Shown here one piece after another: positions 5,934-51,154 of a stretch of DNA of 64,000 nt. The first letter of the stretch is position 1. The number at the start of each line of letters is the position of its first letter. The position numbers and the translations under genes were made by a program. This DNA comes from Candidatus Omnitrophota bacterium (GTDB lineage: Bacteria > Omnitrophota > Gorgyraeia > Zapsychrales > JANLHA01), in NCBI GenBank assembly GCA_020632535.1, contig JACKFJ010000005.1, positions 200 to 64,199 of the forward strand, written 5' to 3'. Under the pieces are notes generated by a model. That model was not told where the DNA came from. It saw nothing but the letters and a program-made list of their open reading frames with translations, and did not search any database.

Positions 5934-5964
5934 TATCTTCCATACTCTCCTTATCAACACAATA

Positions 5965-6009
5965 CAAAGAGGACAGCTCCATATGAACACAATGAAACTG
6001 TCCTCTTTG
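5965..6009. terminator. stem-loop between convergent genes (possible bidirectional terminator)
   Basis: Perfect 12-bp inverted repeat CAAAGAGGACAG (5965..5976) / CTGTCCTCTTTG (5998..6009) with a 21-nt loop. It lies between the stops of 4890..5933(+) and 6044..6307(-). The flanking U-runs are weak. Confidence 0.45.
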
Positions 6010-8350: not shown

Positions 8351-8366
8351 AATAAAGGAAATGTAA

Positions 8367-9368: not shown

Positions 9369-9395
9369 AACAGATGTTTTAACGGAGGAACTTCA

Positions 9396-27596: not shown

Positions 27597-29018
27597 TTAT
27601 TTTATTAAATAGGTGGCAATCTTAACCAAAGGATTTTGTGCCGCCAGATAAATGCCACTGACTTTCTTGTTGATTTGTGCCAATGTGGGATAAACATGCA
27701 TTGCTTTTTCGATTTTTCCAATATCAATCTTCGCGTTAATCACCGCGACCCATTCATGAATCAATTCACCGGCGTGAAGACCAACAATTTGCGCTCCAAT
27801 AAGTCGCCTTTTTGCGTCTGTTAATATTTTAACAAATCCATTTGTTGCACTCTCGGCCAATGCTCTATCCAGATAAGCAAAATCATATTTATAGACTTTA
27901 TATTCTATCCCAGCTTTCTTGGCCATCATTTCATTGAGCCCAACGGAGGCGACTTCCGGATCCGTAAATGTACACCATGGAACATTGGAGTAATCGGTTT
28001 TTAAAATTGGGAATGGCAGTTTGGCATTTAATGCCGCAATTCGCGCATCATATTCAGCGACATGCGTAAATAAAAATCCGCCCTTACAATCTCCACACGC
28101 ATAGATATTCTTAGCTGTTGTCTGCAAGTACCGATTAACTTGAATTCCCTGCGGCGCATACTCCACACCCGCTTTTTCTAAATCCAAGCCACCGACACCC
28201 GGCTGTCGACCCGTAGCTACCAAAAGGGTTTCAGCTTCTATGCTTTTTGCTGTGCCATCATAATCAACGGTAAGTTTGATCGAATCGCCAACCTTTTCCA
28301 CTTTTTGAGCTTTAGCCTTGGTCAAGAATTCAATTCCTTCTTTTGCAAGAAGATCATGAATATAACGTGAAACATCCAAATCTTCTTTTGGCATAATACA
28401 ATCCGCGGACTCAACAACAGTAACTTTTGACCCCAAACGCGAGAAAGATTGTGCCATTTCGATACCAATTGGACCGCCACCCAAGACAATTAAAGACGCA
28501 GGCAATTTATTAAGTGAGAATATTTCAACATTGGTAACATAAGAAACATCTTTTAATCCTTCAATCGGTAGGATACGAGCAGAAGACCCTGTCGCTAAAA
28601 TAAACGTTTTACTGGTGATCTTTATTCCGCTTAACACAATCGTGTGATGATCTAAAAACTTTGGTGATCCAAATTTTGTGTCGATATTGTATTGCTTTTT
28701 AAAAGTCTCGGGAGAATCATGCTTTTGTATTCCTCCGATAATACTTTGAATACGATCCCTCACTTTAGAAAAATCAACCGGCGCAATATTTACTTTAGGC
28801 AGACCATATTGTTCTGCCTGCTTTATTAAATGATAAACGTGCGCACTTTTAATCAGTGATTTTGAGGGCACGCAACCAAAGTGGAGACAATCACCTCCTA
28901 ATTTTTCTTCCTTCTCGACAATCAAAGTTTTGGAACCAAGTTGTGCTGACCATATGGAAGATGTCAAACCGGCCGCTCCTGCACCGATCACAATGACATC
29001 GTATTGAAAATCCGCCAT
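27597..29018 (-). CDS. FAD-dependent pyridine nucleotide-disulfide oxidoreductase (dihydrolipoyl dehydrogenase / MerA-like)
   Basis: YDVIVIGAGAAG, redox CxxxxC (GGDCLHFGCVPSK), second Rossmann LIVLGGGPIGIEMAQ and C-terminal HVYPTLAQ. No C-terminal Cys pair. The longest ORF begins at GTG 29033. Confidence 0.9.
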   Translation of the reverse strand: MADFQYDVIVIGAGAAGLTSSIWSAQLGSKTLIVEKEEKLGGDCLHFGCVPSKSLIKSAHVYHLIKQAEQYGLPKVNIAPVDFSKVRDRIQSIIGGIQKHDSPETFKKQYNIDTKFGSPKFLDHHTIVLSGIKITSKTFILATGSSARILPIEGLKDVSYVTNVEIFSLNKLPASLIVLGGGPIGIEMAQSFSRLGSKVTVVESADCIMPKEDLDVSRYIHDLLAKEGIEFLTKAKAQKVEKVGDSIKLTVDYDGTAKSIEAETLLVATGRQPGVGGLDLEKAGVEYAPQGIQVNRYLQTTAKNIYACGDCKGGFLFTHVAEYDARIAALNAKLPFPILKTDYSNVPWCTFTDPEVASVGLNEMMAKKAGIEYKVYKYDFAYLDRALAESATNGFVKILTDAKRRLIGAQIVGLHAGELIHEWVAVINAKIDIGKIEKAMHVYPTLAQINKKVSGIYLAAQNPLVKIATYLIK

Positions 29019-29033
29019 AATCCAACCTTTCAC

Positions 29034-29705
29034 TTAACGAATATTACGGTATAACTGCCCAAGATATTTTGGTGAAATACCGACAAAGAAACAAAAAGTT
29101 AGAAACCAATTTAACAACATTGTTTTTAACACCCCACCATGTTCCCATCGCCGCGGCAAAACAATTGCAGAATTTTGAAGAACTATCGTTCTTCCTAATC
29201 GTCGTAATTTTTTAGAAAAAATCACATCTTCAAATAAAGAAACCGCTTGAAAACCGCCAATCTGTTCAAAAATATCCCGCCGAACAAAAATAGCCTGATC
29301 GCCATAAAAAATCTTGAATAATTTTGCCCGTAAAGTTCCGGACATTTCAATACAACGATACAACCATTTGTTCGAATCAATTTTATGAGTAAAGCACCCC
29401 CCAACATGATTCAGTGAAACCTGCTTCTCTACGGCTTGCAGTCCTTTGGTATCAATCACGCAATCCGCATGCAAAAAAAGGAAGATATTCCCTTTCGCGG
29501 CAGCAGCCCCGGCATTCATTTGCAATGCTCTTCCCCGCGGGGAAATCATCGTTTTAACAGGAAATTTATGAACAATCTCCAATGTTCTATCATGACTCTG
29601 ACTATCAATAACAATGACTTCAATTGCATCCCCATACGGCAATGAAACCAGCGTTCTCTCGATCGCCCTTTCTTCATTTAAAACAGGAATAATAACAGAA
29701 ATCAC
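29034..29705 (-). CDS. family 2 glycosyltransferase (rSAM/selenodomain-associated transferase 2 type)
   Basis: ISVIIPVLNEE near the N-terminus, VIVIDSQSHDRT and FLHAD. The preferred GTG start at 29705 overlaps the radical-SAM stop as GTGA. The ORF track extends it to 29756. Confidence 0.8.
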   Translation of the reverse strand: MISVIIPVLNEERAIERTLVSLPYGDAIEVIVIDSQSHDRTLEIVHKFPVKTMISPRGRALQMNAGAAAAKGNIFLFLHADCVIDTKGLQAVEKQVSLNHVGGCFTHKIDSNKWLYRCIEMSGTLRAKLFKIFYGDQAIFVRRDIFEQIGGFQAVSLFEDVIFSKKLRRLGRTIVLQNSAIVLPRRWEHGGVLKTMLLNWFLTFCFFVGISPKYLGQLYRNIR

Positions 29706-30658
29706 CGCAAGGCTCCTTGACAGCTTGATCCCGCTCCGGCGGTGCAACCAAAACAATGATTGGCTGTTCTAACTTGCCAATTCTCCAAGTCTTTCTTTGT
29801 AACATCAAAAACCGTAAACGGTTTACGATTGCCCATTCCCATTCCCAACATTTGATTAAAATCACAGTCAAATAATTTCCCGTCCCAGCTAACGTTCAAA
29901 GTATTGCGACACATCAAGCCGTCTAACGTGTGAGGATTAAAATTATTAATCAATAATTCCATGTAACTCTCAAGCTGATTAAAAGCCTTGAGATATTTGG
30001 CATAACGAGTGATAGGCATATTGGTAATGGTGTAAAGTTTATGGAAGGCAATACCAAAATCATTTTTTAACCGTTGTTTATAATCATTTTCCAATTGTTC
30101 CTGTGCTGGCGGCAAATGTGCTCCGACGGGATTATAAACGAGATTTAAATTCAACTCTTCATCCGGCAGCCCATAACCTAAGTTGTTTAACTTTTGTAAT
30201 GCTTTTACAGATTTACTAAACGTCCCATTGCCTCGCTGTTGATCGACATTATTCTCGGAATAACAGGGTAATGATGCAATAATCTCAACGTGATGTTGTG
30301 CAAGAAAATCCCCTAAGCCTTCCATGCCTTTTTCAAAAAGTATCGTCAAATTGCAGCGATCAATAATGTGAATGTCTCTCGTAAAAGCTTCAGCAACCAA
30401 GTACCGAAAATGAGGATTCATCTCGGGCGCGCCACCTGTTAAATCTAAAGTCTGGGGTTTCAAATCATCCATCAAAGCGACAATCGCTTCCGCTGTTTTC
30501 CAATTCATGTTTTCTTTTGTTTTGGTCGGCCCAGCCTCCACATGACAATGCGAGCATGTCAAATTACACAATTTGCCGACATTAACCTGAAGAATCTCGA
30601 TCGATGATTTTCTCAAATCATAAAAATGCTCAACCAATTTTGCTTGAAAACGATTCAT
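29702..30658 (-). CDS. arsS: radical SAM/Cys-rich domain protein (ArsS-type)
   Basis: CNLTCSHCH (Cx3Cx2C) near the N-terminus and the C-terminal Cys-rich tail HCFGCTAGAGSSCQGAL, which is characteristic of the radical SAM/Cys-rich (seleno)protein family. Here it is the Cys (TGT) version. Confidence 0.8.
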   Translation of the reverse strand: MNRFQAKLVEHFYDLRKSSIEILQVNVGKLCNLTCSHCHVEAGPTKTKENMNWKTAEAIVALMDDLKPQTLDLTGGAPEMNPHFRYLVAEAFTRDIHIIDRCNLTILFEKGMEGLGDFLAQHHVEIIASLPCYSENNVDQQRGNGTFSKSVKALQKLNNLGYGLPDEELNLNLVYNPVGAHLPPAQEQLENDYKQRLKNDFGIAFHKLYTITNMPITRYAKYLKAFNQLESYMELLINNFNPHTLDGLMCRNTLNVSWDGKLFDCDFNQMLGMGMGNRKPFTVFDVTKKDLENWQVRTANHCFGCTAGAGSSCQGALR

Positions 30659-31257
30659 GATGCTCCCGTAAGTTTGATTTCATCTAAATCTTCTAATATC
30701 GACAATGCTTTACATTTTAATCGCAAATTCTTTATGGCTTGATACGTCTGTGACAAAACTTCACTCGTGCTCCAATTGATCCCGACAAATAATTGAGACT
30801 GCTTTGAAGTCAATCCAATTAAATAATATCCTCCATCTTTAGCCGGCCCGACAACCACATCTGCGTCTTTGAGTACTATAAGACTTTGTTTAACAATTGC
30901 TGTCGTCAAATTCAAAGTATCACTCCCGCACACAACAACTCGCTTATAATCCCGCTCAAATGCCCAATCAAAAGCATTTATCAAGCGATCACCCAACCCC
31001 AAACCACTCTGAGGGATATATTGATCGGCATCTGGAAACCATTGCCGCACCTTATCATGAACCTCCGGTGGATCAAAAACAACAATCAAATTAGCCTCTC
31101 GACATTCTCGAAGAACAGAATAATTCTGCTCAGCCAATTGTTGATATAAACGTGCTGCTTTTTGATCGCCAATTGTTTTTGCTAAACGCGTCTTGACCTT
31201 ACCGGGAACTGGGTATTTAACAAAAAGCAACATCGCTTGCCTCATGTTATCTTTCAT
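30655..31257 (-). CDS. DUF2064 nucleotidyltransferase-like protein (rSAM/selenodomain-associated transferase 1 type)
   Basis: LLFVKYPVPGKVKTRLA motif. ATG at 31257 has a GGAG SD. Its stop overlaps the radical-SAM ATG as ATGA (30655..30658). Confidence 0.75.
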   Translation of the reverse strand: MKDNMRQAMLLFVKYPVPGKVKTRLAKTIGDQKAARLYQQLAEQNYSVLRECREANLIVVFDPPEVHDKVRQWFPDADQYIPQSGLGLGDRLINAFDWAFERDYKRVVVCGSDTLNLTTAIVKQSLIVLKDADVVVGPAKDGGYYLIGLTSKQSQLFVGINWSTSEVLSQTYQAIKNLRLKCKALSILEDLDEIKLTGAS

Positions 31258-31380
31258 GAAAACTCCAATCAGATCAAACCTATTAATCAATATGTCAGAT
31301 AGGTATTAGTCTTTGTAAAATCCAAATCCTTACAAAGTTCTTAGTTATATAAATGGACCAACATCAACCGAGGAGTATTT

Positions 31381-33195
31381 TTAATTGGAAGAATTTTGTG
31401 GGTCATCCCCGGAATTGCCATCCGAGAGCGCGAAAACCGTATCGCCTTTTTTAACTTGGAATTTTTCGTCAACTGTAAAAATCTTTAGAACCTTTTTTTC
31501 ATTAACAGAAAAAAGGACATTGATTCCCTTGCCATAGCGCCGTGAAAAACTTTCTTCATTTAAGTCTTCAGTTACGACAATAGTCTTGAAAGCATCTTTA
31601 CGTCTAAATTGCTCTACCAAAACATCATGGCCGGAAGCCCGATTAAAAATATACCTGCCACGCAACGAAGGCGGGATGACCATATCCTGACTTTGTATCT
31701 TCCGTCCGGGGAAAAGCTGATAAACTTCAGAGCGACCAAAAATATCACGAAAATGCAAAACTGCCAACGAATTCGCTTCATCATTTGCCGTGAGCGTCAT
31801 CAAACGTCCGATTCCGCTAAAATCAATATTTTCTTCAATATCCTGATTAAAAATATTTTCCTCATACGCTTCCAAATTATCTTCACGCGCTAACGCAATA
31901 TTGATCGCGTTGGAATCAATTAAAATGACTTTAATTCCCACATCTCGCAAACACTTTGCAAACTTTCGCGCCCAACTATGCGCCCCAAGAATTAAAACAC
32001 CCTGTGGATGACTTTGCGCGAGACCAAGCTTCGTGGCAACCCACAAAGATGTTGTTCCATAAATCAAAACTGTTCCAATAATAACTAAAAAGGTCACCGG
32101 AACTAAATATTCTGCCTGCGGAATTCCTTTCTCAGCTAAGCGAAACGCAAAAATCGAAACAATCGCCGCAGCAACAATCCCTCGAGGCGCCATCCACGAA
32201 ATAAACAACTTTTCCCGAGTGCTAAGACCACTTTTTATTGTGGATATAAAAACAGATAATGGCCGCGCAATCAAAACCAGAACCGCAAGAAACGCGATAA
32301 AACGCCAATCCAAGATTGCTAAATCCTTAAGATTCAATCTCGCTGCCAATATAATAAATAGTGTTGAAATAATCAAGATTCCCAAATTTTCTTTAAAACT
32401 CACAATCTGTTGTACTTCAACTTTTCGCTGATTGCCCATAGCAATTCCCATCGCTATAACAGCGAATAAACCGCTTTCATGATGAATAATGTTCGAAAGT
32501 GTAAAAATAGCCACAACCAAAATCAGTGTCACCGTACCGTGCAGAAAATCAGGAATCCAATATTTTCGAAGAGCCAATATGAGCATCCACGCTCCGGCAA
32601 ACCCTAATGCGGATCCAATTAAAATACTTTTAATAAAGAATATAAGCGCGCCTACAGAAAAGATCTCACCAACAACAATATACTCATAAACAAATACCGC
32701 CAAAGCCGCGCCCACCGGATCAATAACAATCCCTTCCCATTTGATAACACTGCCAACTTTTCCCGTCGGACGAACATGACGCAATAACGGAATAATTACA
32801 GTAGGGCCGGTCACAACCAAAATCGACCCTAAAAGCATAGCAATTGTAAGGTTCAAACCGAGTATGTAATGCGCCGCCAGCGTAATTAAAACTCCATTAA
32901 TCAAAACACCAACACTAACCAAATTAAAGACAGCTTTACCTATTTTGGATAATTCGTGCAACCTTAATCCCAATCCACCTTCAAAAAGAATAATCGCAAC
33001 CGAAATTGAAACCAATGGCATTAATAATGGCCCCAAAACTTCATCAGGGCGAATTAAGAGCATAACCGGTCCCGCAATAAATCCTATCGCCAGCAATAAG
33101 ACGATCGAAGGCAATTTAAACCGCCACGCCAGCCACTGCGCGCCAACCCCAGCTACGAGAATACTCGCTATTCCTATAAATAAATCTTGTGACAT
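31381..33195 (-). CDS. cation:proton antiporter (CPA family) with C-terminal RCK (TrkA-N/TrkA-C-like) domains
   Basis: About 400 aa of TM helices, then a Rossmann-like VLILGAHSWARKFAKCLRDVGIKVILID and a C-terminal beta-rich TrkA-C-like segment (FKTIVVTEDLNE..KKGDTVFAL). Confidence 0.85.
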   Translation of the reverse strand: MSQDLFIGIASILVAGVGAQWLAWRFKLPSIVLLLAIGFIAGPVMLLIRPDEVLGPLLMPLVSISVAIILFEGGLGLRLHELSKIGKAVFNLVSVGVLINGVLITLAAHYILGLNLTIAMLLGSILVVTGPTVIIPLLRHVRPTGKVGSVIKWEGIVIDPVGAALAVFVYEYIVVGEIFSVGALIFFIKSILIGSALGFAGAWMLILALRKYWIPDFLHGTVTLILVVAIFTLSNIIHHESGLFAVIAMGIAMGNQRKVEVQQIVSFKENLGILIISTLFIILAARLNLKDLAILDWRFIAFLAVLVLIARPLSVFISTIKSGLSTREKLFISWMAPRGIVAAAIVSIFAFRLAEKGIPQAEYLVPVTFLVIIGTVLIYGTTSLWVATKLGLAQSHPQGVLILGAHSWARKFAKCLRDVGIKVILIDSNAINIALAREDNLEAYEENIFNQDIEENIDFSGIGRLMTLTANDEANSLAVLHFRDIFGRSEVYQLFPGRKIQSQDMVIPPSLRGRYIFNRASGHDVLVEQFRRKDAFKTIVVTEDLNEESFSRRYGKGINVLFSVNEKKVLKIFTVDEKFQVKKGDTVFALSDGNSGDDPQNSSN

Positions 33196-35572: not shown

Positions 35573-36757
35573 CTAAGGACTTTCTGGATGGCTTAATGTG
35601 ACATTCAAATTTGTTGGTTCAATACTTTCCAAATCGATATCTTCCGGAATTCGCAAATTATCCGCATGTAATTTAATATTTTGTTCCATATTCGTTAATT
35701 TTAAATCGAGGTTAACTTTAATATTTTGTACTTTCATTAAATACAGCGCCCTTCGCGTACCTCGCAATGTGATCCTTAATTCATTCGGTTCCAATTTTTG
35801 AACAATCCACGCTCCCGGCAAATTTGGATTTTGAACTGGTATCGTAAAGCTCTTATAAGTCGTTTCCGCTCCAAAAACGAGAACAAACCAAAGCCCAATA
35901 GCAATGATCAGCGCATAAAATTTTTCGCGCGATGTTTTCTTGAAAAGATTTTGCCAAAATGCTTCCAAAGGCTTAGGTTGATTCATTTGGTAAAAATCGT
36001 CGACAATGGCCGTCAAATGATCCGGATCTCGAACTTCTCTAAGTGAACCCTCATGCGCAACTGAAATTGTTCCCTTTTCTTCAGATACAATCAAACACAA
36101 AGCATCGCTGAGTTCCGCAAGCCCCAAACCAGCGGCATGACGAGTCCCATGATTTTTCAAAGCTTTCAAATTCTTAGACAAAGGAAGATGACAAGAAAAT
36201 AGAGTAATTTTATTTCCTTCAATAATCATAGCCCCGTCATGACCAGCAGAATGCGGGTCAAAGAGACTCGCAATCAATTGGGAGCTGATCACGCCATTAA
36301 GAACATGTCCTCCATCTAATTGTCGACCAATGACGTCCTTGCCTTTAATCACAACAAGAGCACCGATCCTCTTTCTCGCTAATTCAAATAAAGTCCTAAC
36401 TAAAACATCTGTTTGTGGAAGAATATATTTTTTGTCGAGTTTGATCCCAAACCTACGGTTGATTCCCCATGCCGCAATTCTCTCAAAAAAACGTCGAATT
36501 TCTTCCTGAAAAATAACAACAAAGGCAATAAAGATCACTCCAAAAAATTTCTCAAAAACCATCGAAATCATGACCAAATTAAATATACGCGCGATCAAAT
36601 ATACGAATAAAGTAATAAAAATACCCTTAAGAATAAAAGCGGCTCGTGTTTTATTAAACCAAATCAATAAAAAATAAATAAGAATCGCCATTAAAACGAT
36701 ATCTAATAAACCATTCCATCCAATTTCTAAAATCCAATTAAAAAAAAGACTCTTCAT
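35573..36757 (-). CDS. cdaA: diadenylate cyclase CdaA fused to a TM helix plus a YbbR-like domain
   Basis: Three N-terminal TM helices, then a DAC domain with HDGAMII and GTRHAAG (canonical GTRHRAA) and VSEEKGTISV. This is followed by a TM (FYALIIAIGLWFVLVF) and one YbbR-like repeat (ELRITLRGTRRAL..VNLDL..NLNVTL). Confidence 0.9.
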   Translation of the reverse strand: MKSLFFNWILEIGWNGLLDIVLMAILIYFLLIWFNKTRAAFILKGIFITLFVYLIARIFNLVMISMVFEKFFGVIFIAFVVIFQEEIRRFFERIAAWGINRRFGIKLDKKYILPQTDVLVRTLFELARKRIGALVVIKGKDVIGRQLDGGHVLNGVISSQLIASLFDPHSAGHDGAMIIEGNKITLFSCHLPLSKNLKALKNHGTRHAAGLGLAELSDALCLIVSEEKGTISVAHEGSLREVRDPDHLTAIVDDFYQMNQPKPLEAFWQNLFKKTSREKFYALIIAIGLWFVLVFGAETTYKSFTIPVQNPNLPGAWIVQKLEPNELRITLRGTRRALYLMKVQNIKVNLDLKLTNMEQNIKLHADNLRIPEDIDLESIEPTNLNVTLSHPESP

Positions 36758-36769
36758 AAATAATCACTC

Positions 36770-39562
36770 CTATTGATTCTTGACGATACACACAGATGCT
36801 GGGAAATTTGCGAATAATAAACCAACCGAGATCCGACTTGAAATAGTGACTTCTTGATTTGTAATAACGTCCTGATAATTTCCTTCACACCCTGCGGGGA
36901 GAACAAACACCGTATCACCCCAAATTGTATTGCCCAAAGGACATTGATCCATCGTCACAACTTCGCACAAAAACCGTGGGACAGCGACGACAATACTCTT
37001 ATTCAAATACCTACGCATAAAACCAATCACATGATTATGCAAACAGCCTTCGGCAATTAATGGAACATAATCACCTTTTCGGAAAACTTCTTCATATTCT
37101 TGAATTGCCATCAGCAATCGATTTGTTAGAAACAATTTAATCCCATCATCGGTTCGATTGAAAAGCAACTCAGAAATAATCTCATTTAATCTTTCTTGAC
37201 CCTGTGTCATGAAATTCGTCAATTGACGCTCACGACGACTATAATCAACCGCGCGACGATTATCAGGGTCGACCATTGTCAAATCCCAAAATTCTGTCCC
37301 CTGATAAGTATCCGGAACTCCCGGACTTGTCATTTTTAAAACCGTTTGTGAAAGAGAATTCCATACTCCGTACGCAGCGATTTTTCTTTGAAACGGTGAA
37401 AACGCTTTCAAAAATTCATTATCCAGCTCTGAATTAAGAAGATTATCGATAAATTGCAAACAGGCCTGCTCATATTGTTCCGCTGGCTTAATCCAAGCGG
37501 TATGACGTTTGGCCTCACGAATCGCTTTAATAAAATAACTTTTAATGCGCTCTAAATAATCTGACGACATCCCTTCAAATGGATATGTCCCAAGCAAAGT
37601 CTGATATAAAAAATACTCATCATTCTCATCCGGAGCAAGCACTCTCCCAACTTGCGTCTTTTTCCCTTTATTCACTTGGGCCCAATGCCGCAAATGATCA
37701 TCCCATTCTTGGGGCAATTCCGAAACAACATTAATCCTCGCTCTCACATCTTCACCACGCTTCATATCATGTGTAGCCGTCGCGCACATCGCGTGCGGTG
37801 TCATCGCTAATCGATGAGAATTAAAGGTGTGAAACTCATCCCGAGTAAATCCAAATTTCTCAGGACTTCCACCTACTTCATTAAGTGAAATTAGCACGTT
37901 ATAAACATAGAGCATCGTATCTTCAAACCCTTTAGCCATAACCGGACCGGTATATTGCTGAAAAGTCTGCACAAAGTTAAGCCAAGCCTTTTTATCTTCT
38001 TGCGAAGTTTCTTCACCAAATTGTAAAAGTAAGAACTTTTCAATAAAATTTAATTCATAAACAAATCCCGGAATTTTATTCTTAGCGCTGTGGATCGCGA
38101 TTTTTATATACTCCTCATCACTCAAACACACCGCATCACTATTGATATATGTTCGATAAATAGGAAAATGCGCCATGACTTCAACAAGCGCTCTACGCAA
38201 CCCATAAAGAGTAATATCTCTCCCCATCCGATCATGACTGGAAATCTTTTTAATTTGCTGCGCTAAATTATCAATGTTCCCAGCAAGATGTTTACTAATA
38301 ATCGTTCTTTTATTCTCACACAAAAGATCTTCATATGAAGACTTCCAACGCGCAAATGATAAATATAAATCTTCAAAAAGATTTTTATGGTCCGTACGGC
38401 AAAACACACCATTAACAATATTCATAAAATCATACCCCGTTGTCCCTTGCGTCAACCATTGCTTAGGCATATCTTCGTTAGGGAACAAAATCTTTTCGAC
38501 AACAATATAATGATCCGGAGCAATTCCCGAGAGCTGTTTCAAATAATTTTCAGGATCATACAGGCCGTCAATATGGTCAACTCTCAAACTTTGAACTTTA
38601 TTCTCTGCCACAAGCGACTGAATCAACTGATGAGTTAAATGAAAAATTTTCTCATCCTCAACGCGGACTGAAATCAAATCACTGATTGCAAAAAAGCGTC
38701 GATAGTTGATTTCTTCCGTCGCTACTTTCCAGAATGACAAACGATAATGCTGACTCGAAATCAATTCATCTAATGGGCCGTAATGATTTTGACCACCCTC
38801 CGCGCTGTTAAAGAATCGCAAATTCGCATCAATATATTTGGCAACTTTAACATTGCCTTGATAAAGCTGCCAAAGCATTGCTTTGGCATGCCGCATTTGA
38901 TCACTTTGCGCAAAATCCCCAATCTGATTTGCCAAGGCTTTGAATAAATTGATCACCCCTAATAATTTGATTAAATCTGCGTTATGCGCTAATTCCGCTT
39001 CAAGCTGTTTAATTTTATGCAAAAGGATTTGAACATAGGAACCGACCTTTATGGGAAAATGATACTGATAATAGTTGATTTTAAACCCATGCTCATCGTA
39101 AGAAAGCTGGATTTCACCGTCTTCCAAAGCTTGCGCATAAAACTTCCCCAACACCGGGACTAATAATCGACCACGCATATTCTCATACGGATGATTCCAG
39201 TCAATATCAAAAACATGGAAATATTTTGAATCTTCCCGATTCTCAAAAATATCCATTAACATCATATTGTCTGAATCCAATGCCATATGATTTGGAACAA
39301 TGTCCTGCATCCATGTCATTCCATGCTTTTTTAATTCCGCGATCAATTCTTCAAAATCTGCAAGCGTCCCTAATTCAGGATTAATTTGCGAAGGGTCGAC
39401 AATATCATACCCATGCAAACTTTTTACTCTGGCTTTAAATATGGGGGAAGCATAAACCTCCCCTATCCCAAGCTTAGATAAATAAGGAATTATTTCTTTC
39501 AACTTTCGAAAAGGAAATTGATGATTAAGCTGAACTCTATATGTCGATTGAGGGATTCGCAT
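36770..39562 (-). CDS. treY: malto-oligosyltrehalose synthase
   Basis: STYRVQLNHQFPF, VYASPIFKA..SLHGYD, QDIVPNHMA and LRVDHIDGL. The preferred ATG at 39562 overlaps the GH57 stop (TGATG). The longest ORF starts at 39586. Confidence 0.9.
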   Translation of the reverse strand: MRIPQSTYRVQLNHQFPFRKLKEIIPYLSKLGIGEVYASPIFKARVKSLHGYDIVDPSQINPELGTLADFEELIAELKKHGMTWMQDIVPNHMALDSDNMMLMDIFENREDSKYFHVFDIDWNHPYENMRGRLLVPVLGKFYAQALEDGEIQLSYDEHGFKINYYQYHFPIKVGSYVQILLHKIKQLEAELAHNADLIKLLGVINLFKALANQIGDFAQSDQMRHAKAMLWQLYQGNVKVAKYIDANLRFFNSAEGGQNHYGPLDELISSQHYRLSFWKVATEEINYRRFFAISDLISVRVEDEKIFHLTHQLIQSLVAENKVQSLRVDHIDGLYDPENYLKQLSGIAPDHYIVVEKILFPNEDMPKQWLTQGTTGYDFMNIVNGVFCRTDHKNLFEDLYLSFARWKSSYEDLLCENKRTIISKHLAGNIDNLAQQIKKISSHDRMGRDITLYGLRRALVEVMAHFPIYRTYINSDAVCLSDEEYIKIAIHSAKNKIPGFVYELNFIEKFLLLQFGEETSQEDKKAWLNFVQTFQQYTGPVMAKGFEDTMLYVYNVLISLNEVGGSPEKFGFTRDEFHTFNSHRLAMTPHAMCATATHDMKRGEDVRARINVVSELPQEWDDHLRHWAQVNKGKKTQVGRVLAPDENDEYFLYQTLLGTYPFEGMSSDYLERIKSYFIKAIREAKRHTAWIKPAEQYEQACLQFIDNLLNSELDNEFLKAFSPFQRKIAAYGVWNSLSQTVLKMTSPGVPDTYQGTEFWDLTMVDPDNRRAVDYSRRERQLTNFMTQGQERLNEIISELLFNRTDDGIKLFLTNRLLMAIQEYEEVFRKGDYVPLIAEGCLHNHVIGFMRRYLNKSIVVAVPRFLCEVVTMDQCPLGNTIWGDTVFVLPAGCEGNYQDVITNQEVTISSRISVGLLFANFPASVCIVKNQ

Positions 39563-41991
39563 CAAATTAATTTTATTCTCAAGCATTCACCCAATTGTGT
39601 AAATGCTTCAAAGACCCTTTTATCCTCTGGGCTAGCATTTTGTTTGTTTTGAATTGCTTTCGCATATTCCGGCCCGAGCGAAAAATAAATATTTTCCGCT
39701 TTCCACAAATTTAATATCAAATTTAACTCACCAATCAATTTGATCAATTCATTGATTTCTTCCATAATCTCAACACGCGGCGTTGAATCCCGAAAACACT
39801 CTTCAACAGACGCATTAATCCTGTTGCTACACAAAAGTCCCAACGCATCAATATCCAAGCGAATCGAAAAACGCTTGGTCTCTTGAATAATATGTTTCAG
39901 TTTTTGTTGATCGAGTTTGTCTCCCAATAAACATTCTTTAATTTGTGTGTTTAATAAGAACGGGAGAATCCCTTGAAAAAGTTCCGGCAAAACGACATTG
40001 TAACCTTCAGCCGCATGCAGTATTGAAGAATGATGCTCATAAACATGTCCCAACGACGATACAATTTCTTTACGCGCTTCATCAAAAATCAAATTGACAA
40101 CTTTTCTTTGTTCATCACGAAATAAATACCATAATGAAAAATGATGACTGGGAAAATGGCTATTCATTAAGAGAATCACATCAGGAGTCGCGCCACTTAA
40201 AAACGCTTTGCTGACCTGTTCTGTCATTGTCTTGTACGCCTCTTCTCCCTGAAAACTTCGAGCTCCGCATGTCACATTATGATCACCCATATGCAAGACC
40301 GCGAAACTCACTTCCTCCTCTTCCCACGTCAACCGCGATTTAATATATACCTTGCCTAACGCCAATTTATGCTTTCCAAATTTCAATTGTTCATAAGCAA
40401 GGCGTTCAACTTGATAAACATAAAGCTCCTCTGTCGCAGAAAGATCCGAAAATAGTGATGATACCGCGTAGTGAACACCCACCCGCAATAAATCTAAAAT
40501 TTGCGGCTCAACATACTTTTGATAAATAACCGACCCGTTTTGTAACTCCGGCAGATTGCTGGGTGCTCTTTGCAAAAGCCCTTTAAATGAATCCTGCAGT
40601 GAAATATTACTGACATTTTTAGCAATTTGAATAGCCCGAGCCGCGTAATTCATCACTTGCACCGTCTCAATGCCAGAGATCTCATCAAAAAACCAACCAC
40701 AACTCGTATACATCAATAATTCATGCCGCTGCATTTCCAAAAGCTTGAGAATTTTGACTTTTTCTTCTGGCGTTAATTCTTTTTTAGCATATTTTGATAA
40801 AAGAGAATGAACATGATTTGCGTCATGACTTAAAACAACGTGAATATAATCATTTCGTAAAGCCCAAATATCACTGACCAATTCACCAGCTTGCTGCTCA
40901 TATATTTCTGTCAGATTATCTCTTAACCAATCAAGCGCCCCACGCAATGGCGCGCGCCATTCTTGATTCCAATTGCCACGCATTCCAGAATTACAGCCGC
41001 AGTTTGCTTTCCAGCGCTCAACACCATGAACGCAACTCCATGAAGAATTCTCGTGAATCTGCGCCTCCCAAGTTGGCGGAAACTTCTCCAGATACTCAGC
41101 ATAAATTGTGATATTGGCTAAATCATTCGAAATCAAATGATGCAAACAATACGCCAAAGCCATATCCCCATAACGATGATGATGACCATATGTTTCTCCA
41201 TCCGTCGCAATATGTACTAATTCCGGATCCTTACTCGATTCTGAAAAAACGGAAAGAAGACGTCCCGAAAAACGCTCGCCGCTTTCCAACAATTTTTCAA
41301 AAGCAATTTGTTGTGAAATTGGACCGTCATAAAAAAACAAACTTATTGTCTTACCTGACGGCAGATGGCACAAATATGGACGTTTTGGATCAACTTGCCC
41401 TCCCGAAACATCAATCCATTCTTTCCCCTTTAATTTCTTGATTTTTGCCGCTTGATTAGGTGCTAAAATTGTAAATTTGATATTGTGATCTGCTAATAAT
41501 TCTAATGTTTCGGTATCAACCGCTGTTTCTGCCAACCACATCCCTTCCGGATAGCGCTTGAATCGATGCTCAAAATCACGTATTCCCCAAATAATCTGAG
41601 TTTCTTTATCCCGACGATTAGCCAATGGCATAATGATATGGTTATAAACCTGCGCCAAAGCACTGCCATGTCCGGAATACCGCTCCCGACTTTTTTTATC
41701 AGCGTCTAAAATTCCTTGATACGCAAGTGGATCATGTTTCTCAAGCCACATCAAAAGGGTTGGCCCAAAATTAAAGCTGATTCGAGAATAATTATTCACA
41801 ATACTCTGAATACGACCATCATTCCCAAAAATCCGAGAAGAAGCATTAGGAGCATAACACTCAGCCGTAATGCGGCTATTCCAATCATGATAAGGGTACG
41901 CTGAATCCTGAATTTCAACTTCTTCAAGCCACGGATTTTCACGCGGTGGTTGATAAAAATGTCCATGAATACAAATATAACGATTTGTCAT
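39562..41991 (-). CDS. glycoside hydrolase family 57 protein (long, DUF3536-type)
   Basis: ICIHGHFYQPPRENPW, MWLAETAVD (candidate nucleophile Glu) and IATDGETYGHHH (candidate acid/base Asp). The ATG at 41991 has a GGAG SD and overlaps the treZ stop as ATGA. Confidence 0.85.
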   Translation of the reverse strand: MTNRYICIHGHFYQPPRENPWLEEVEIQDSAYPYHDWNSRITAECYAPNASSRIFGNDGRIQSIVNNYSRISFNFGPTLLMWLEKHDPLAYQGILDADKKSRERYSGHGSALAQVYNHIIMPLANRRDKETQIIWGIRDFEHRFKRYPEGMWLAETAVDTETLELLADHNIKFTILAPNQAAKIKKLKGKEWIDVSGGQVDPKRPYLCHLPSGKTISLFFYDGPISQQIAFEKLLESGERFSGRLLSVFSESSKDPELVHIATDGETYGHHHRYGDMALAYCLHHLISNDLANITIYAEYLEKFPPTWEAQIHENSSWSCVHGVERWKANCGCNSGMRGNWNQEWRAPLRGALDWLRDNLTEIYEQQAGELVSDIWALRNDYIHVVLSHDANHVHSLLSKYAKKELTPEEKVKILKLLEMQRHELLMYTSCGWFFDEISGIETVQVMNYAARAIQIAKNVSNISLQDSFKGLLQRAPSNLPELQNGSVIYQKYVEPQILDLLRVGVHYAVSSLFSDLSATEELYVYQVERLAYEQLKFGKHKLALGKVYIKSRLTWEEEEVSFAVLHMGDHNVTCGARSFQGEEAYKTMTEQVSKAFLSGATPDVILLMNSHFPSHHFSLWYLFRDEQRKVVNLIFDEARKEIVSSLGHVYEHHSSILHAAEGYNVVLPELFQGILPFLLNTQIKECLLGDKLDQQKLKHIIQETKRFSIRLDIDALGLLCSNRINASVEECFRDSTPRVEIMEEINELIKLIGELNLILNLWKAENIYFSLGPEYAKAIQNKQNASPEDKRVFEAFTQLGECLRIKLI

Positions 41992-43865
41992 TTTTTCTCC
42001 AAACGATACGCGACAAATGCCCAAGGAGCAATTGTCACAACTTGATTACGTTTAATCATTGATGATAATTCATCCCCAATACCGGCCCATTGCGCCGCGG
42101 TTGAATCAATCATCTTTTTCCATGTGCCAACGGGGATATTCAAACGGCATGTTTGCGACTTAGCACCAAAATTTAGCAAACATAAAATTTCTTGCCGCTG
42201 ATGCCATCGGCGTAAAAGTAAAATCTTTCCCTCTGCGTCAAAGAAAATATCCATTTTCGACTTATCCAAATTCTTCAAAACCCCAGATGTTTGACGAACT
42301 TTTATCAAAGCCTGATAATATCGCAACATGGCCTGTTGTTTCTCTTGCGATAATTGATGCCACTGCAATTTTGATTCCAAAAAAGTTTGTTCATCTTGTG
42401 GATCCGGTGGTTCCCCTTTCCAAAGAAAGGCTTTAAATTCTTCTTTTCTCCCTTTCCGAACCGCACTGATTAAATTCTTGTCACCATGATCAACAAAATA
42501 GAAAAAAGGACTCTTCTCACCATATTCTTCCCCCATAAATAAAAGTGGAACATACGGCGCGGTCATCAGCAAACCCGCCGCCGCTTTTAACGCTTCAAAC
42601 GGGATTAAACTAGCCAATCTCTCCCCGTTCATACGGTTACCAATCTGATCATGATTTTGTAAACTGATTACAAATTGCTCAGCCTTACAATCTTCTACTG
42701 AGTTTCCATGATGGCGCTTACGAAAATCTGAATATTGTCCGTCATAAACAAAAGTTTTCTTTAAAGCTTTTAGAATATCTTCAAACCGACCAAAATCATG
42801 ATAATACCCAAATTGTTCCTTTGTCAGAACCGAATGCACCGCGTGATGAAAATCATCCGACCATTGCGCATCAATTCCAAGCCCCCCCAGTTGAGCGGGA
42901 CGAACAACTGTCGCGTCATTCAAATCACTTTCGGCAATCAAAAGACGCTTTCGTCGATCTACGAGTGAAAATGCCCGCGTTTTCTGAGCCAACTCTTTTA
43001 AGAAATGCTTAGCACTAAAGTCATAAATCGCGTGAACCGCATCTAGACGAAGAGCATCAACATGAAAATCACGAAACCAATATAAGGCATTCTCAAAAAA
43101 ATAATTTCGAACCTCATCAGAATAACGGTCATCGAAATTCACTGCCCAGCCCCATGGCGTTTTATATTTGTCTGTAAAATAAGGCCCGAATTGATTAAGA
43201 TAATTTCCTTCTGGCCCCAAATGGTTATAAACAACGTCGAGAATTACCGCCAAGCCTCGACAATGACATTCATCGATCAATCGTTTAAAAGAATTTACCC
43301 CACCGTAGGAATTCTGTACTGCGAAAGGATAAACGCCATCATAGCCCCAATTCCGTTGACCGGGAAATTGCGCGACTGGCATAATCTCAACGGCTGTAAT
43401 CCCTAAAGAAGATAAATAATCTAACTTTTCAATCGCGGCGTCAAATGTCCCTTTTGCCGTAAAAGTCCCGACATGCAATTCATAAATGATCATTTGTTCT
43501 AATTTTATTCCTGTCCATTTTCGATCCGCCCAAGAATATTGTTTATGATCAATGATTTGTGAGGGGCCATGAACACCTTGTGGTTGTGATAATGAAGCAG
43601 GGTCGGGCTTATCCCCAAAAGCAGACGAATGGTAAAAATATAAATCGCCCGGATCGACATCTGTCGCAGTTATTTCCCAATATCCATCCCTAACAGATTT
43701 CATCGGTAATTTTAGTTTCGGGCGCTTAACAAGTTTTACGGACACGTCCTCGGCAAAGGGCGCCCAAACTCGAAAACGACATTTCTTTTTCCCTAAGTAA
43801 CACGCACCAATATTTATCGAATCTGACACAGACTTTTCCTCACTGACTTTTTTTAAGAACAACAA
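41988..43865 (-). CDS. treZ: malto-oligosyltrehalose trehalohydrolase
   Basis: FRVWAP, NWGYDGV, VILDVVYNHLGPEGNY and DALRLDAVHAI. The longest ORF starts at TTG 43865. GTG at 43832 with a GAGGA SD is a plausible true start just after the glgB stop. Confidence 0.9.
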   Translation of the reverse strand: MLFLKKVSEEKSVSDSINIGACYLGKKKCRFRVWAPFAEDVSVKLVKRPKLKLPMKSVRDGYWEITATDVDPGDLYFYHSSAFGDKPDPASLSQPQGVHGPSQIIDHKQYSWADRKWTGIKLEQMIIYELHVGTFTAKGTFDAAIEKLDYLSSLGITAVEIMPVAQFPGQRNWGYDGVYPFAVQNSYGGVNSFKRLIDECHCRGLAVILDVVYNHLGPEGNYLNQFGPYFTDKYKTPWGWAVNFDDRYSDEVRNYFFENALYWFRDFHVDALRLDAVHAIYDFSAKHFLKELAQKTRAFSLVDRRKRLLIAESDLNDATVVRPAQLGGLGIDAQWSDDFHHAVHSVLTKEQFGYYHDFGRFEDILKALKKTFVYDGQYSDFRKRHHGNSVEDCKAEQFVISLQNHDQIGNRMNGERLASLIPFEALKAAAGLLMTAPYVPLLFMGEEYGEKSPFFYFVDHGDKNLISAVRKGRKEEFKAFLWKGEPPDPQDEQTFLESKLQWHQLSQEKQQAMLRYYQALIKVRQTSGVLKNLDKSKMDIFFDAEGKILLLRRWHQRQEILCLLNFGAKSQTCRLNIPVGTWKKMIDSTAAQWAGIGDELSSMIKRNQVVTIAPWAFVAYRLEKK

Positions 43866-45780
43866 TACTTAATGGCGGAAGCGTTAATGCTAATGAATGA
43901 TAAAATCCATGAATCGCGACGGGATCACTTTCTTGGCCGCCCATATTCCCATGACCACTACCACCGTATTCATTCGCATCCGTATTGAGAATTTCCCGCC
44001 AATACCCTGATTGCGGGACGCCAACTCGATACGCACAACGCAGCGCCGGCGTAAAATTGCACACAATCAAAAGATCATCTTGGGGATGTTGCGTTTTTCT
44101 TAAGAAACTAATTACGCTTTGTTGTGAATCACTTGAATCAACACAGTGAAAACCTTCCGACAAGAAATCCGTTTGATACAGAGCTGGTTCCGTTTTATAC
44201 AAATTGTTCAAGTCCTTGACACATTGCAAAATTCCCGCGTGCGCAGGATACTGTAACAAATGCCAATCAAGACTTTTTTCATGGTTCCATTCATCCCATT
44301 GCCCGAATTCACAACCCATAAAAAGCAGTTTTTTACCCGGATGTGTAAACATATACCCATACAATAATCGCAAATTGGCGAATTTTTGCCATTGATCACC
44401 GGGCATTTTATTAATCAATGACCCCTTGCCGTGCACCACTTCATCATGTGACAGCGACAGTACAAAATTCTCTGTAAACGCGTACAAATAACTAAACGTC
44501 AATTCACCATGATGATATTTACGAAAAACCGGATCCTCAGCAAAATAACTCAACGTATCATGCATCCATCCCATGTTCCATTTCATGCCAAATCCCAGCC
44601 CTCCTAAGTACAAAGGCCGCGACACTCCGGGCCAAGCTGTTGATTCTTCCGCGGTCACTTGCGTGTCAGGAAAATATTCATAAACAGTTTTGTTCAGTTG
44701 TTTTAAAAACTCAATGGATTCAAGATTTTCACGTCCCCCATATTTATTCGGAATCCATTCTCCCTCTTTGCGAGAATAGTCTCGATAAAGCATTGAAGCT
44801 ACCGCATCAACCCGCAGCCCGTCAACATGATACTTGTCCAACCAAAACACAGCACTGGAAATCAAAAATTCCTTTACTTCTTGACGGCCCAGATTAAAAA
44901 TATAACTTTTCCAATCCGGGTGAAAACCTTCTCTTTTATCTGTATGTTCAAATAGATTCGTGCCATCAAAATAAACTAACCCGTGCTCATCGGATGGGAA
45001 ATGTGATGGAACCCAATCTAAGATGACACCAATATTGTTTTGATGTAACGCATCAATCAAGAACATAAAATCCTGCGGTGTTCCATACCGATTCGTAGGA
45101 GCAAAATAACCAATCGATTGATAACCCCATGACCCGTAGAACGGATGCTCCATAACCGGCAAAAATTCCACATGCGTAAAACCTGTCGCTTTAATGTAAT
45201 CGACTAAATATTTTGCTAATTCCCGGTATGTGCAATAACGGTTATTTTCTTCAATAATCCTGCGCCAAGATCCTAAGTGAATTTCATAAATAGACATCGG
45301 CTTATCAAGCGCGTTAAATTGCTGCCTTTTTTTCATCCATGATTGATCCGTCCATTCGTTTTCTAAATCCCAAACAATTGAAGCTGTTTTAGGAGGAACT
45401 TCATTAAAAAACGCGTACGGATCACGTTTCTCAACGGAATAATTCTGATTCTTGGAAGTAATGGAGTACTTATACAGCGTTCCTTTTTCCAGTCCTTCAA
45501 TAAATCCCTCCCAAATCCCCGACGAGTCCCAGCGCGCGGACAAAGGATGCTTCCCTTTGGCCCAACCGTTAAAATCACCGATAACCGAGACACTTTCGGC
45601 ATTAGGTGCCCAAACCGCGAAATGAACACCCGCTTTTCCGTTGCGCACAATCAAATGCGACCCTAATTTCTCATAAAGTTTATAATGATTCCCCTCGCGA
45701 AATAAATAAATATCATGTTCAGTTATAAAGTTCTGTTCTGTTGTCAAAATCTTACTATCCGCATTTTTAACATCAGCCAT
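43840..45780 (-). CDS. glgB: 1,4-alpha-glucan branching enzyme
   Basis: THVEFLPVMEHPFYGSWGYQ, GVILDWVPSHFP, HVDGLRVDAVASMLY and AEESTAWP. Strong SD AAGGAGG. Confidence 0.95.
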   Translation of the reverse strand: MADVKNADSKILTTEQNFITEHDIYLFREGNHYKLYEKLGSHLIVRNGKAGVHFAVWAPNAESVSVIGDFNGWAKGKHPLSARWDSSGIWEGFIEGLEKGTLYKYSITSKNQNYSVEKRDPYAFFNEVPPKTASIVWDLENEWTDQSWMKKRQQFNALDKPMSIYEIHLGSWRRIIEENNRYCTYRELAKYLVDYIKATGFTHVEFLPVMEHPFYGSWGYQSIGYFAPTNRYGTPQDFMFLIDALHQNNIGVILDWVPSHFPSDEHGLVYFDGTNLFEHTDKREGFHPDWKSYIFNLGRQEVKEFLISSAVFWLDKYHVDGLRVDAVASMLYRDYSRKEGEWIPNKYGGRENLESIEFLKQLNKTVYEYFPDTQVTAEESTAWPGVSRPLYLGGLGFGMKWNMGWMHDTLSYFAEDPVFRKYHHGELTFSYLYAFTENFVLSLSHDEVVHGKGSLINKMPGDQWQKFANLRLLYGYMFTHPGKKLLFMGCEFGQWDEWNHEKSLDWHLLQYPAHAGILQCVKDLNNLYKTEPALYQTDFLSEGFHCVDSSDSQQSVISFLRKTQHPQDDLLIVCNFTPALRCAYRVGVPQSGYWREILNTDANEYGGSGHGNMGGQESDPVAIHGFYHSLALTLPPLSIVVLKKSQ

Positions 45781-45792
45781 TTCAGACCTCCT

Positions 45793-48700: not shown

Positions 48701-49125
48701 GGATCATCGCTCCACACATAATAATTTCTCAGTGCCGAACCCGGCTTCGCCATTCTCGCTTTTTGAAACCAATCGTGTTGATCAGAAGTGTGATTAATCA
48801 CCAATTCCGTAATCACGCGAATCCCGCGCGAATGAGCTTCATTTAAAAATTCTTTAAAATCCTTAATCGTCCCGTATTGCGGATGAACAGCAAAATAATC
48901 AGCGATATCATAGCCATCATCCCGTAAGGGTGACGGATAAAATGGTAAAACCCAAACCGCGGTAACTCCCAACTTCTGCAGATGATCTAACTTTTGCGTC
49001 AATCCGGGAATATCGCCAATACCATCAGCATTGCTATCATAAAAAGATTTGATATGAACTTGATAAATAATCGCGTCTTTGTACCACAAGAGATCGTCTT
49101 TAAATTTCTTGGTCTTTTTTGCCAT
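45793..49125 (-). CDS. treS: trehalose synthase fused to maltokinase (TreS-Pep2/Mak)
   Basis: N-terminal GH13 part: [26 protein letters not shown] and [13 protein letters not shown]. C-terminal kinase part: [27 protein letters not shown]. The ATG at 49125 has a GGGAG SD. The longest ORF starts at 49167. Confidence 0.9.
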   Translation of the reverse strand: [1110 protein letters not shown]

Positions 49126-49167
49126 GTTATCTCCCAAATGATTAAAGTAATGCCGCAACAATAACAA

Positions 49168-51123: not shown

Positions 51124-51154
51124 TATTAGCACCTGCCTTTTCTAAAAAGTTCCC

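Follow-up and report, generated by a model that had tools for sequence, protein, structure and literature searches.

A predicted CdaA-type diadenylate cyclase with a fused CdaR-derived domain and no second arginine in its RHR motif, from a Candidatus Omnitrophota bacterium

Is a diadenylate cyclase (DAC) that has lost the second Arg of its RHR motif still a cyclase, and what is the domain fused to its C terminus? Both questions are raised by one gene, here called cdaA, in a 64,000-nucleotide stretch of DNA from a Candidatus Omnitrophota bacterium (contig JACKFJ010000005.1; the window, below, is this whole stretch). As judged from sequence conservation and predicted structure, the protein probably belongs to a distinct subfamily of CdaA and is active as a diadenylate cyclase of the inner membrane; we name this subfamily the RHx clade (x standing for A, S or T). 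Its C-terminal 130 residues are a minimal CdaR, composed of a membrane anchor and the first domain, fused to CdaA. The gene and its domains are laid out as follows.

35573..36757, minus strand: the whole cyclase open reading frame (ORF), 394 residues, a CdaA-type diadenylate cyclase with a C-terminal transmembrane (TM) helix and a YbbR module
36767..36771, minus strand: Shine-Dalgarno-like AGGAG read from the sequence, 9 nucleotides (nt) 5′ of the ATG and overlapping the treY stop codon (36770-36772)
36497..36733, minus strand: CdaA_N region, residues 9-87, with three TM helices (about 16-34, 46-64 and 64-82), from Pfam PF19293, hydropathy and AlphaFold
36044..36394, minus strand: DAC (DisA_N) catalytic domain, residues 122-238, cytoplasmic, from Pfam PF02457, PDB chain alignments and model superposition
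35864..35920, minus strand: fourth TM helix, residues 280-298, from hydropathy and AlphaFold
35594..35863, minus strand: single YbbR-like beta domain, residues 299-388, predicted to be periplasmic, from Pfam, profile and Foldseek matches

A first-pass annotation of this DNA had described three TM helices, a DAC domain, a further TM helix and one YbbR-like repeat within a single ORF, and Pfam, hydropathy and AlphaFold agree on this order. Pfam places CdaA_N at residues 9-87 (PF19293, E 4.5e-8, 33.6 bits against a cut-off of 23.8) and the catalytic domain at residues 122-238 (PF02457, E 1.8e-33, 115 bits against a cut-off of 27), while hydropathy marks TM segments at residues 16-34, 46-64, 64-82 and 280-298. 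The AlphaFold model (mean predicted local distance difference test score, pLDDT, of 84) shows four TM helices and a beta domain running from about residue 299 to 388. Solved CdaA chains in the PDB match the DAC domain with E-values of 1e-25 to 7e-34, and the DAC model superimposes on CdaA/DacA structures with a target template-modeling (TM) score of 0.9 and a root-mean-square deviation of 1.4-1.7 Å. W290, which lies within the fourth TM helix (TM4), is invariant. Lys and Arg residues number 2 in loop 1, 8 after TM3, 5 in residues 262-280 ahead of TM4 and 1 after TM4. These counts, taken with a DAC domain that must be cytoplasmic, place the N terminus and the YbbR domain on the outer side of the inner membrane in the predicted topology, the same arrangement as that of CdaA and CdaR in Firmicutes.

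The sequence comes from a metagenome-assembled genome (MAG), and this origin is all that favors an explanation by sequencing or assembly error, in which two genes were joined or the motif was altered by mistake. We find such an error barely credible. A sequencing-induced fusion of two genes, raised as a possible failing of the first-pass annotation, is rejected by more than 200 independent full-length homologues with the same architecture and by a 94%-identical gene present in two other, separate assemblies. Hundreds of independent assemblies carry both the architecture and the motif, the reading frame is unbroken and shows a pattern of purifying selection, and a change between the GCC codon of Ala and any Arg codon requires at least two base changes.

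The catalytic motifs of the DAC domain are located as follows.

36230..36241, minus strand: HDGA motif, H173-D174-G175-A176, invariant in 117 of 117 family members
36173..36175, minus strand: K195, directly 3′ of LPLS
36131..36148, minus strand: G204-T205-R206-H207-A208-A209, a GTRHRA variant with Ala in place of the second Arg
36077..36085, minus strand: SEE motif, S225-E226-E227, invariant and followed by K228

Of the two defining motifs, the DGA motif of the DAC superfamily is intact (HDGAMII, residues 173-179) and the RHR motif is not, as the first-pass annotation had read them. At 36142..36134 the codons read cgt cat gcc, for R206, H207 and A208, and GTRHAAGLGL aligns with GTRHRAAIGL of the solved CdaA chains without a gap across the motif; the Arg-to-Ala change is therefore not an alignment shift. 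An equivalent Arg supplied from one position away had been a concern, and in the same alignment no Arg lies within 3 residues on either side of position 208. The remaining catalytic residues are untouched: H173, D174, G175, A176, L191-P192-L193, G204, T205, R206, H207, S225, E226 and E227 are invariant in the 117 family sequences. These include the His before DGA (H173) and the Glu of SEE (E227), whose equivalents are Mn/Co-binding residues of CdaA (PMC12974146).

The fusion and the RHA sequence, taken by the first-pass annotation as peculiarities of this one gene, are instead traits of a large, old and conserved clade distributed across many diderm phyla. The 120 best matches in a collection of 5.8 billion proteins are 374-510 residues long and align over 85-100% of the query length (119 of them over at least 93%); all 120 read GTRH[A/T/S] and none RHR, and 33 of 33 further relatives likewise lack the second Arg. 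When one genome was scanned for each GTDB species, at least 514 relatives were returned, a figure that is an upper bound for the clade because the pattern used was partly motif-based. The best 80 of these loci supply the GTDB motif and neighborhood counts. All 80 are without the second Arg, with RHA in 47, RHS in 19, RHT in 3, RHG in 1, AAS after RH in 1 and GLRHTAA in 9. Their MAGs carry the labels Omnitrophota, Verrucomicrobiota/Opitutales, Planctomycetales, Thermodesulfobacteriota/Deltaproteobacteria, Binatia, Dadabacteria, Elusimicrobia, Bacteroidota/Ignavibacteriales, Spirochaetia and KSB1. A search with the C-terminal module only, which is blind to the catalytic motif, recovered 4406 representatives at E≤1e-3 and 734 at E≤1e-10 from 1.84 billion clusters at 50% identity; in the top matches that cover the DAC motif (n=68), the second Arg is missing from 65 and RHR is present in 3.

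As a contrast set, a metagenome scan for DNA encoding GTRHRAA.G yielded 120 stretches and, from these, 105 RHR-type DAC ORFs, mostly of 250-330 residues. A neighbor-joining (NJ) tree with midpoint rooting was built from 295 sequences over 136 aligned DAC columns; the 197 sequences without the second Arg all fall into a single clade, which contains no RHR member. Clade members share 61% DAC identity on average and the sampled RHR sequences 47%, and identity across the two groups averages 36-43%. Relative to the 94%-identical Omnitrophota gene, the ratio of nonsynonymous to synonymous substitution rates (dN/dS) is 0.07 overall, 0.04 for the DAC domain and 0.115 for TM4 plus the YbbR domain, and identity in the C-terminal domain falls to about 35% across the family. 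This pattern appears to be the signature of a working protein, with an active site that was remodeled once and then fixed, and not of a decaying enzyme.

These data bear directly on a reading in which the protein has no cyclase activity and functions as a membrane receptor or scaffold that binds nucleotide, either ATP or c-di-AMP (cyclic di-adenosine monophosphate), beside a canonical DAC. In favor of this reading, RHR is held to be indispensable, and mutating RHR to AAA inactivates the enzyme (PMC3328451, PMC13022847); moreover the protein scores under the cut-off for CdaA equivalogs, eleven substitutions are specific to the clade with several beside catalytic residues (G172 before His173, F187, K195 and A208), and a second DAC may lie elsewhere in these genomes. 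We nonetheless judge a loss of activity to be unlikely. The other catalytic and metal-binding residues do not vary among 117 sequences drawn from many phyla, which would be unusual for a dead enzyme, and constraint within the protein is strongest in the DAC domain. The frequent operon-like pairing with a GdpP-like DHH/DHHA1 gene, described below, suggests a pair that makes and breaks the same nucleotide, and no second DAC was found within the 64 kb window or the flanks of the 80 family loci. Invariant catalytic residues and strong purifying selection thus argue against loss of function, as far as sequence can tell.

Alignment comparison identifies about eleven positions that distinguish the clade from the RHR enzymes: G139 (R in the RHR enzymes), R145 (E/D/N), H146 (Y/F), G172 (L), F187 (A), K195 (D/E/Q/T) and A208 (R), with G149, D167, H169 and C221 as further clade-specific positions. 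Position 195 is K or R in 117 of 117 aligned family members and K in 86% of the 197 clade sequences, in contrast to the D/E/Q/T of RHR-type enzymes. Where CdaA has its adenine-stacking Tyr, 72% of the family has His, 18% Gln and 8% Tyr. Position 228 is R or K in 92% of the family and Thr in both solved Firmicute CdaA chains aligned. This residue was considered as compensation for the lost Arg and rejected: fused proteins that keep RHR carry R/K228 too, so R/K228 predates the loss. K195, which is specific to the clade, would be a further candidate. In the active-site background set by the clade-specific positions, the second Arg may be dispensable.

The same coordinated and conserved substitutions around the nucleotide site (His or Gln at the stacking Tyr, K195, A208 and G172) could alternatively mean altered chemistry, namely use of ADP, another metal, a linear pApA-type product or another cyclic dinucleotide, and the clade would then be a new DAC class. 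Its wide separation from the RHR enzymes fits such a change, as does the remark that CdaS and DisA vary at the stacking Tyr and may therefore bind substrate differently (DacM preprint 10.1101/2022.03.11.483894). This, too, seems to us improbable, given that LPL, HDGA, the first Arg with its His, and SEE are all unchanged, that the model retains the CdaA fold, that the adjacent putative phosphodiesterase of many loci resembles the c-di-AMP-specific GdpP, and that the K+, osmolyte and MscS contexts of the family are those classically associated with c-di-AMP.

The identity of the C-terminal module was less apparent from Pfam, where YbbR (PF07949, residues 306-388) reaches an E-value of 2.7e-4 and 21.6 bits, slightly below the gathering score of 22.3; support from profile and fold matches is stronger. 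Pfam detects YbbR at E≤0.01 in 20 of 117 family members, and longer clade members exceed the threshold with 37 and 51 bits. An alignment of the family module, used as a hidden Markov model profile (A2), matches a separate gene directly downstream of a canonical RHR cdaA in 39 metagenome loci. The matches cover the N-terminal TM helix and first domain of the downstream protein with independent E-values below 1e-3, the lowest being 2e-18, and the two downstream genes that were checked against Pfam are YbbR proteins at 67-73 bits. Among solved structures, the A2 profile best matches the YbbR domain of Listeria CdaR (Lmo2119; 5hqh, E 7e-4), and it also matches the YbbR protein 2l3u. With a separate AlphaFold model of the module as the query, Foldseek places annotated YbbR proteins at four of the top five PDB ranks, ranks 1-3 among them (3lyw, 2kq1, 5hqh and 4qdy), with probability 1.0 and target TM scores of 0.36-0.78 but E-values of only 0.02-0.13.

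The matches to CdaR genes and to the Listeria CdaR structure therefore identify the gene as a cdaA-cdaR fusion, and the suggestion that a regulator domain has been built into the cyclase is upheld. The label of a CdaR-type domain needs narrowing: the module is CdaR-derived, yet it holds one TM helix and one YbbR domain on the cyclase chain and is not a whole CdaR, which is a separate polypeptide with multiple repeats. No second YbbR module and no separate YbbR gene occur within the 64 kb window.

Fusion is not confined to proteins without the second Arg. In the contrast set, which was targeted to GTRHRAA.G and otherwise unselected, the module is also fused in five RHR loci (L089, L090, L130, L193 and, in split form, L170), and the three RHR matches of the module-only search are further fused proteins. 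A strict link between fusion and RHA is ruled out by these cases, and the two traits are therefore separable. The fused RHR proteins (about 391 residues in L130 and L193, about 472 in L089 and L090) have the same order of three TM helices, DAC, TM helix and YbbR, and like the clade they have SEERG C-terminal to the DAC core; they differ from it in keeping GTRHRAA and in lacking K195 and the other clade signatures. In DAC closeness to the clade they rank 33-87 of 98, no nearer than unfused CdaAs, and a sister relationship to the clade is accordingly unsupported by DAC identity. Since they are not the nearest relatives of the clade, fusion of cdaA and cdaR apparently arose more than once, although an NJ tree with midpoint rooting cannot settle the number of events; the data suggest independent fusions. 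In L193 (869-3584, minus strand) the fused RHR protein lies directly downstream of an ORF that by eye resembles a glycoside hydrolase family 77 (GH77) 4-alpha-glucanotransferase, which would again connect a fused CdaA with the metabolism of alpha-glucans.

Repeated fusion also counts against a reading in which the C-terminal domain is passive, acting as an anchor, spacer or oligomerization aid while control comes from cytoplasmic partners or from membrane tension on TM1-3. In favor of a passive domain, only one YbbR repeat is kept of the several typical of CdaR, constraint on the protein is weakest in the module (dN/dS 0.115, about 35% family identity), and the role of CdaR itself is unresolved (PMC10117814). 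Against this, the module is present in every clade member seen and remains under purifying selection, and the TM helix and first domain that it retains are the best conserved part of separate CdaR proteins. We consider a passive domain doubtful, and an active regulatory domain in the same chain as the cyclase is the reading that we carry forward.

Comparison with characterized systems places both halves of the protein. The CdaA/DacA enzymes of the Firmicutes Listeria monocytogenes, Bacillus subtilis and Staphylococcus aureus (4rv7, 6huw, 6gyw and 9g69) share the three N-terminal TM helices, the cytoplasmic DAC domain and the HDGA, LPL, GTRH and SEE motifs, at a DAC identity of 34-36%. The protein described here differs in having Ala for the second Arg, His at the position of the stacking Tyr, Lys after LPLS and Lys/Arg for the Thr after SEE, in having about 130 extra C-terminal residues (TM4 plus YbbR), and in the lack of a cdaR or glmM neighbor. 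CdaR (5hqh, 3lyw, 2kq1 and 4qdy), which in Firmicutes modulates CdaA from outside the membrane, resembles the module in having a single TM anchor and a YbbR-fold domain outside the membrane, but it is a separate protein, usually with several domains, whereas here a single domain is covalently attached to the C terminus of the cyclase. Among diderms, Chlamydia has DacA with a separate ybbR gene and no glmM at the locus. Leptospira likewise pairs cdaA with a separate cdaR, has no glmM at the locus and retains the canonical GXRHRXA (PMC12974146). In both, the cyclase and YbbR genes are separate, unlike the fusion. Homology of its domains places the protein in the DAC superfamily, and it resembles a CdaA-CdaR pair in its predicted working. 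It is best filed as a variant and not as a canonical CdaA: RHR is absent, the score against NCBIfam TIGR00159 is under the cut-off, and the cdaR-glmM module is missing. We found no paper that describes a natural CdaA-CdaR fusion or the motif variant, and the architecture may already be listed in DAC surveys (Galperin 2023).

What the cyclase is likely to make is indicated indirectly by its neighbors across the family. The commonest neighbor in the 80 family loci is a DHH/DHHA1 gene encoding about 355 residues. In 23 of the 74 loci analyzed, a DHH-family gene is the immediate neighbor of the cyclase gene; it mostly lies upstream in the same orientation, at distances of -4 to +39 nt (examples are L001, L005, L006, L008, L009, L012, L020, L027 at 4924-5988, L029, L041, L059, L061 and L071), and the DHH and cyclase genes often overlap by 4 nt. 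The profile of the DHH neighbor matches the catalytic domain of GdpP over its full length (5xsi, E 3e-12) as well as the c-di-AMP phosphodiesterase 9n0l, while family II pyrophosphatases score similarly over its N-terminal half and its Pfam DHH score is marginal (27.2 against 28.1). It differs from GdpP in being a stand-alone DHH/DHHA1 protein without the TM/PAS/GGDEF part. Within 6 kb of the cyclase in the 80 loci, trehalose/alpha-glucan genes occur in 12, from several phyla, MscS in 5 and CorA in 5; the recurring glucan genes are GlgE, GlgB, OtsAB and a protein of about 1120 residues matched to the TreS/maltokinase fusion by size alone. Turgor, K+ and compatible solutes are classical themes of c-di-AMP biology. 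The pairing with a putative phosphodiesterase, together with neighbors related to turgor, K+ and osmolytes, is the main indirect argument for c-di-AMP as the product.

In the window, the genes around cdaA are as follows.

49168-51132, minus strand: GlgE
45793-49167, minus strand: TreS/maltokinase fusion
43840-45780, minus strand: GlgB
41988-43865, minus strand: TreZ-like protein
39562-42024, minus strand: GH57+DUF3536 protein
36770..39586, minus strand: TreY-like protein of the alpha-amylase family, 938 residues, the upstream neighbor, 12 nt from cdaA
33257..35509, minus strand: SLC12 / K-Cl-cotransporter-type permease, 750 residues, with a C-terminal SLC12 domain, the downstream neighbor after a 63 nt gap
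31381..33195, minus strand: K+/H+-antiporter-like CPA protein with TrkA_N, 604 residues

Six consecutive trehalose/alpha-glucan genes (36770-51132, minus strand), with TreY last, thus lie directly upstream of cdaA. The direct neighbors of cdaA are TreY and SLC12, so glmM is not adjacent, as had been noted before, and no GlmM-type motif ([ST]ASHNP) occurs within the 64 kb window; the cdaA-cdaR-glmM arrangement is not found there. The CPA antiporter is not claimed as a c-di-AMP receptor, because no c-di-AMP-binding RCK_C domain was recognized in its C terminus. Promoter and terminator counts in window scans are at the background of shuffled sequence.

The locus of the 94% relative (L201) keeps the order cdaA-SLC12-CPA. 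Upstream of its cdaA, at 8260-9988, are a 168-residue fragment of the GlgE N-domain and a 389-residue ORF without a Pfam match, preceded by a TetR gene, and the full array from GlgE to TreY is missing from that position. This suggests recent rearrangement or gene decay. Two features farther from cdaA have counterparts in L201. At 27597-31290 (minus strand) are genes for DUF2064, radical-SAM/DUF3641, a GT2 glycosyltransferase and a pyridine-nucleotide-disulfide oxidoreductase, tightly packed with overlapping stops and starts and kept in L201. At 51874-55986 (minus strand) is a 1370-residue protein with six CARDB repeats, Big_7 and a weak match to the GH2 TIM barrel, which has a counterpart of 1369 residues.

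In the mechanism that we favor, an active cyclase under control of its own periplasmic domain, two DAC domains would meet head to head and form c-di-AMP from ATP through His-Asp-Gly-Ala, Thr-Arg-His and Ser-Glu-Glu, the second Arg being dispensable in a background of about eleven clade-specific positions that includes K195. The periplasmic YbbR domain may sense a property of the envelope, such as turgor, peptidoglycan or the state of the periplasm. The signal would pass through TM4, packed on the TM1-3 bundle, and set the output of the cyclase in cis; the module is predicted to lie outside the cytoplasmic membrane, which makes cis coupling of an external signal a reasonable proposal. The product would in turn control osmolyte and K+ balance, in keeping with a gene that is flanked by trehalose/alpha-glucan genes on one side and two K+ transporter genes on the other, and with how often family members are paired with a GdpP-like gene.

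Several observations weigh against this proposal. The field takes RHR as the defining catalytic motif of these enzymes. Beyond the inactive RHR-to-AAA mutants cited above, the first Arg is essential (PMC12974146, DacM preprint 10.1101/2022.03.11.483894); the accessible literature covers such triple mutants or the first Arg, and no paper was found on the second Arg mutated alone, so only conservation speaks for its being dispensable. The TIGR00159 score is 185.0 bits, slightly below the cut-off of 188.8. The window itself contains no DHH gene and no c-di-AMP riboswitch (Rfam matches in the window are 0), the CPA antiporter has no recognizable c-di-AMP-binding RCK_C (no Pfam TrkA_C and no PDB match), and the putative operon structure is read from spacing and strand only. 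Every named homologue is MAG-derived, with 0 cultured members among the named matches of two database searches. If a canonical DAC were present elsewhere in these genomes, a specialized or non-catalytic role would become likelier. Lastly, the sign of regulation by CdaR is unsettled even among Firmicutes: it is reported to activate in B. subtilis and to inhibit in both Listeria and S. aureus (PMC10117814).

The remodeling of the active site and the DHH pairing can be combined in a broader proposal, in which the RHx clade would be a functionally separate DAC class with another substrate, product or metal or with strict dependence on the periplasmic domain, and would form a self-contained module with its DHH partner. 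Such a module would tie the state of the envelope to trehalose/alpha-glucan and K+ homeostasis in uncultured diderm phyla. The proposal would rest on the frozen nature of the changes, which are the missing second Arg, His or Gln at the stacking Tyr, Lys after LPLS and Gly before the metal-binding His. We regard it as a long shot next to an active CdaA that forms c-di-AMP.

With an active CdaA as the favored reading, the clade is informative for both enzyme and regulator. Hundreds of sequence clusters in at least 10 phylum-level groups manage without the second Arg while all else is kept; either this Arg is not catalytic, or the clade works differently. How CdaR controls CdaA and what CdaR senses are still open questions (PMC10117814), and a single-chain version with one TM helix and one YbbR domain is a minimal natural system for structural and mutational work on CdaR. 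The fusion gives independent support of the "Rosetta-stone" kind for the first CdaR domain and TM helix as the functional interface, and the recurrent neighborhood of GdpP-like DHH, trehalose/alpha-glucan, MscS, CorA and K+ transporter genes extends the osmolyte theme of c-di-AMP to diderm lineages. For annotation, the variant motif is not reflected in public protein names, which read only "diadenylate cyclase", and a precomputed YbbR match exists for 2 of the 120 nearest homologues.

Proteins of the same superclade extend the architecture further. The long forms, of 460-535 residues with GLRHTAA (L063, L077, L048, L057, L064, L069, L072, L075 and L076), come from Syntrophales, Desulfomonilia and delta-proteobacterial MAGs. 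They share the domain order, also lack the second Arg and have a YbbR domain at the homologous position that scores above the Pfam threshold; they differ from the gene described here in that the Thr of GTRH is Leu and K195 is not conserved. The Pfam YbbR match of L063 lies about 85 residues more C-terminal than that of L077, which is consistent with a second YbbR repeat in L063. Finally, six loci from MAGs labeled Dadabacteria or Spirochaetia (L017, L018, L021, L023, L025 and L026) have an identical neighborhood, in the order MOFRL/DUF4147 gene, cdaA, small ORFs, MshEN response regulator and glutamine synthetase, which suggests lateral transfer or mislabeled bins.

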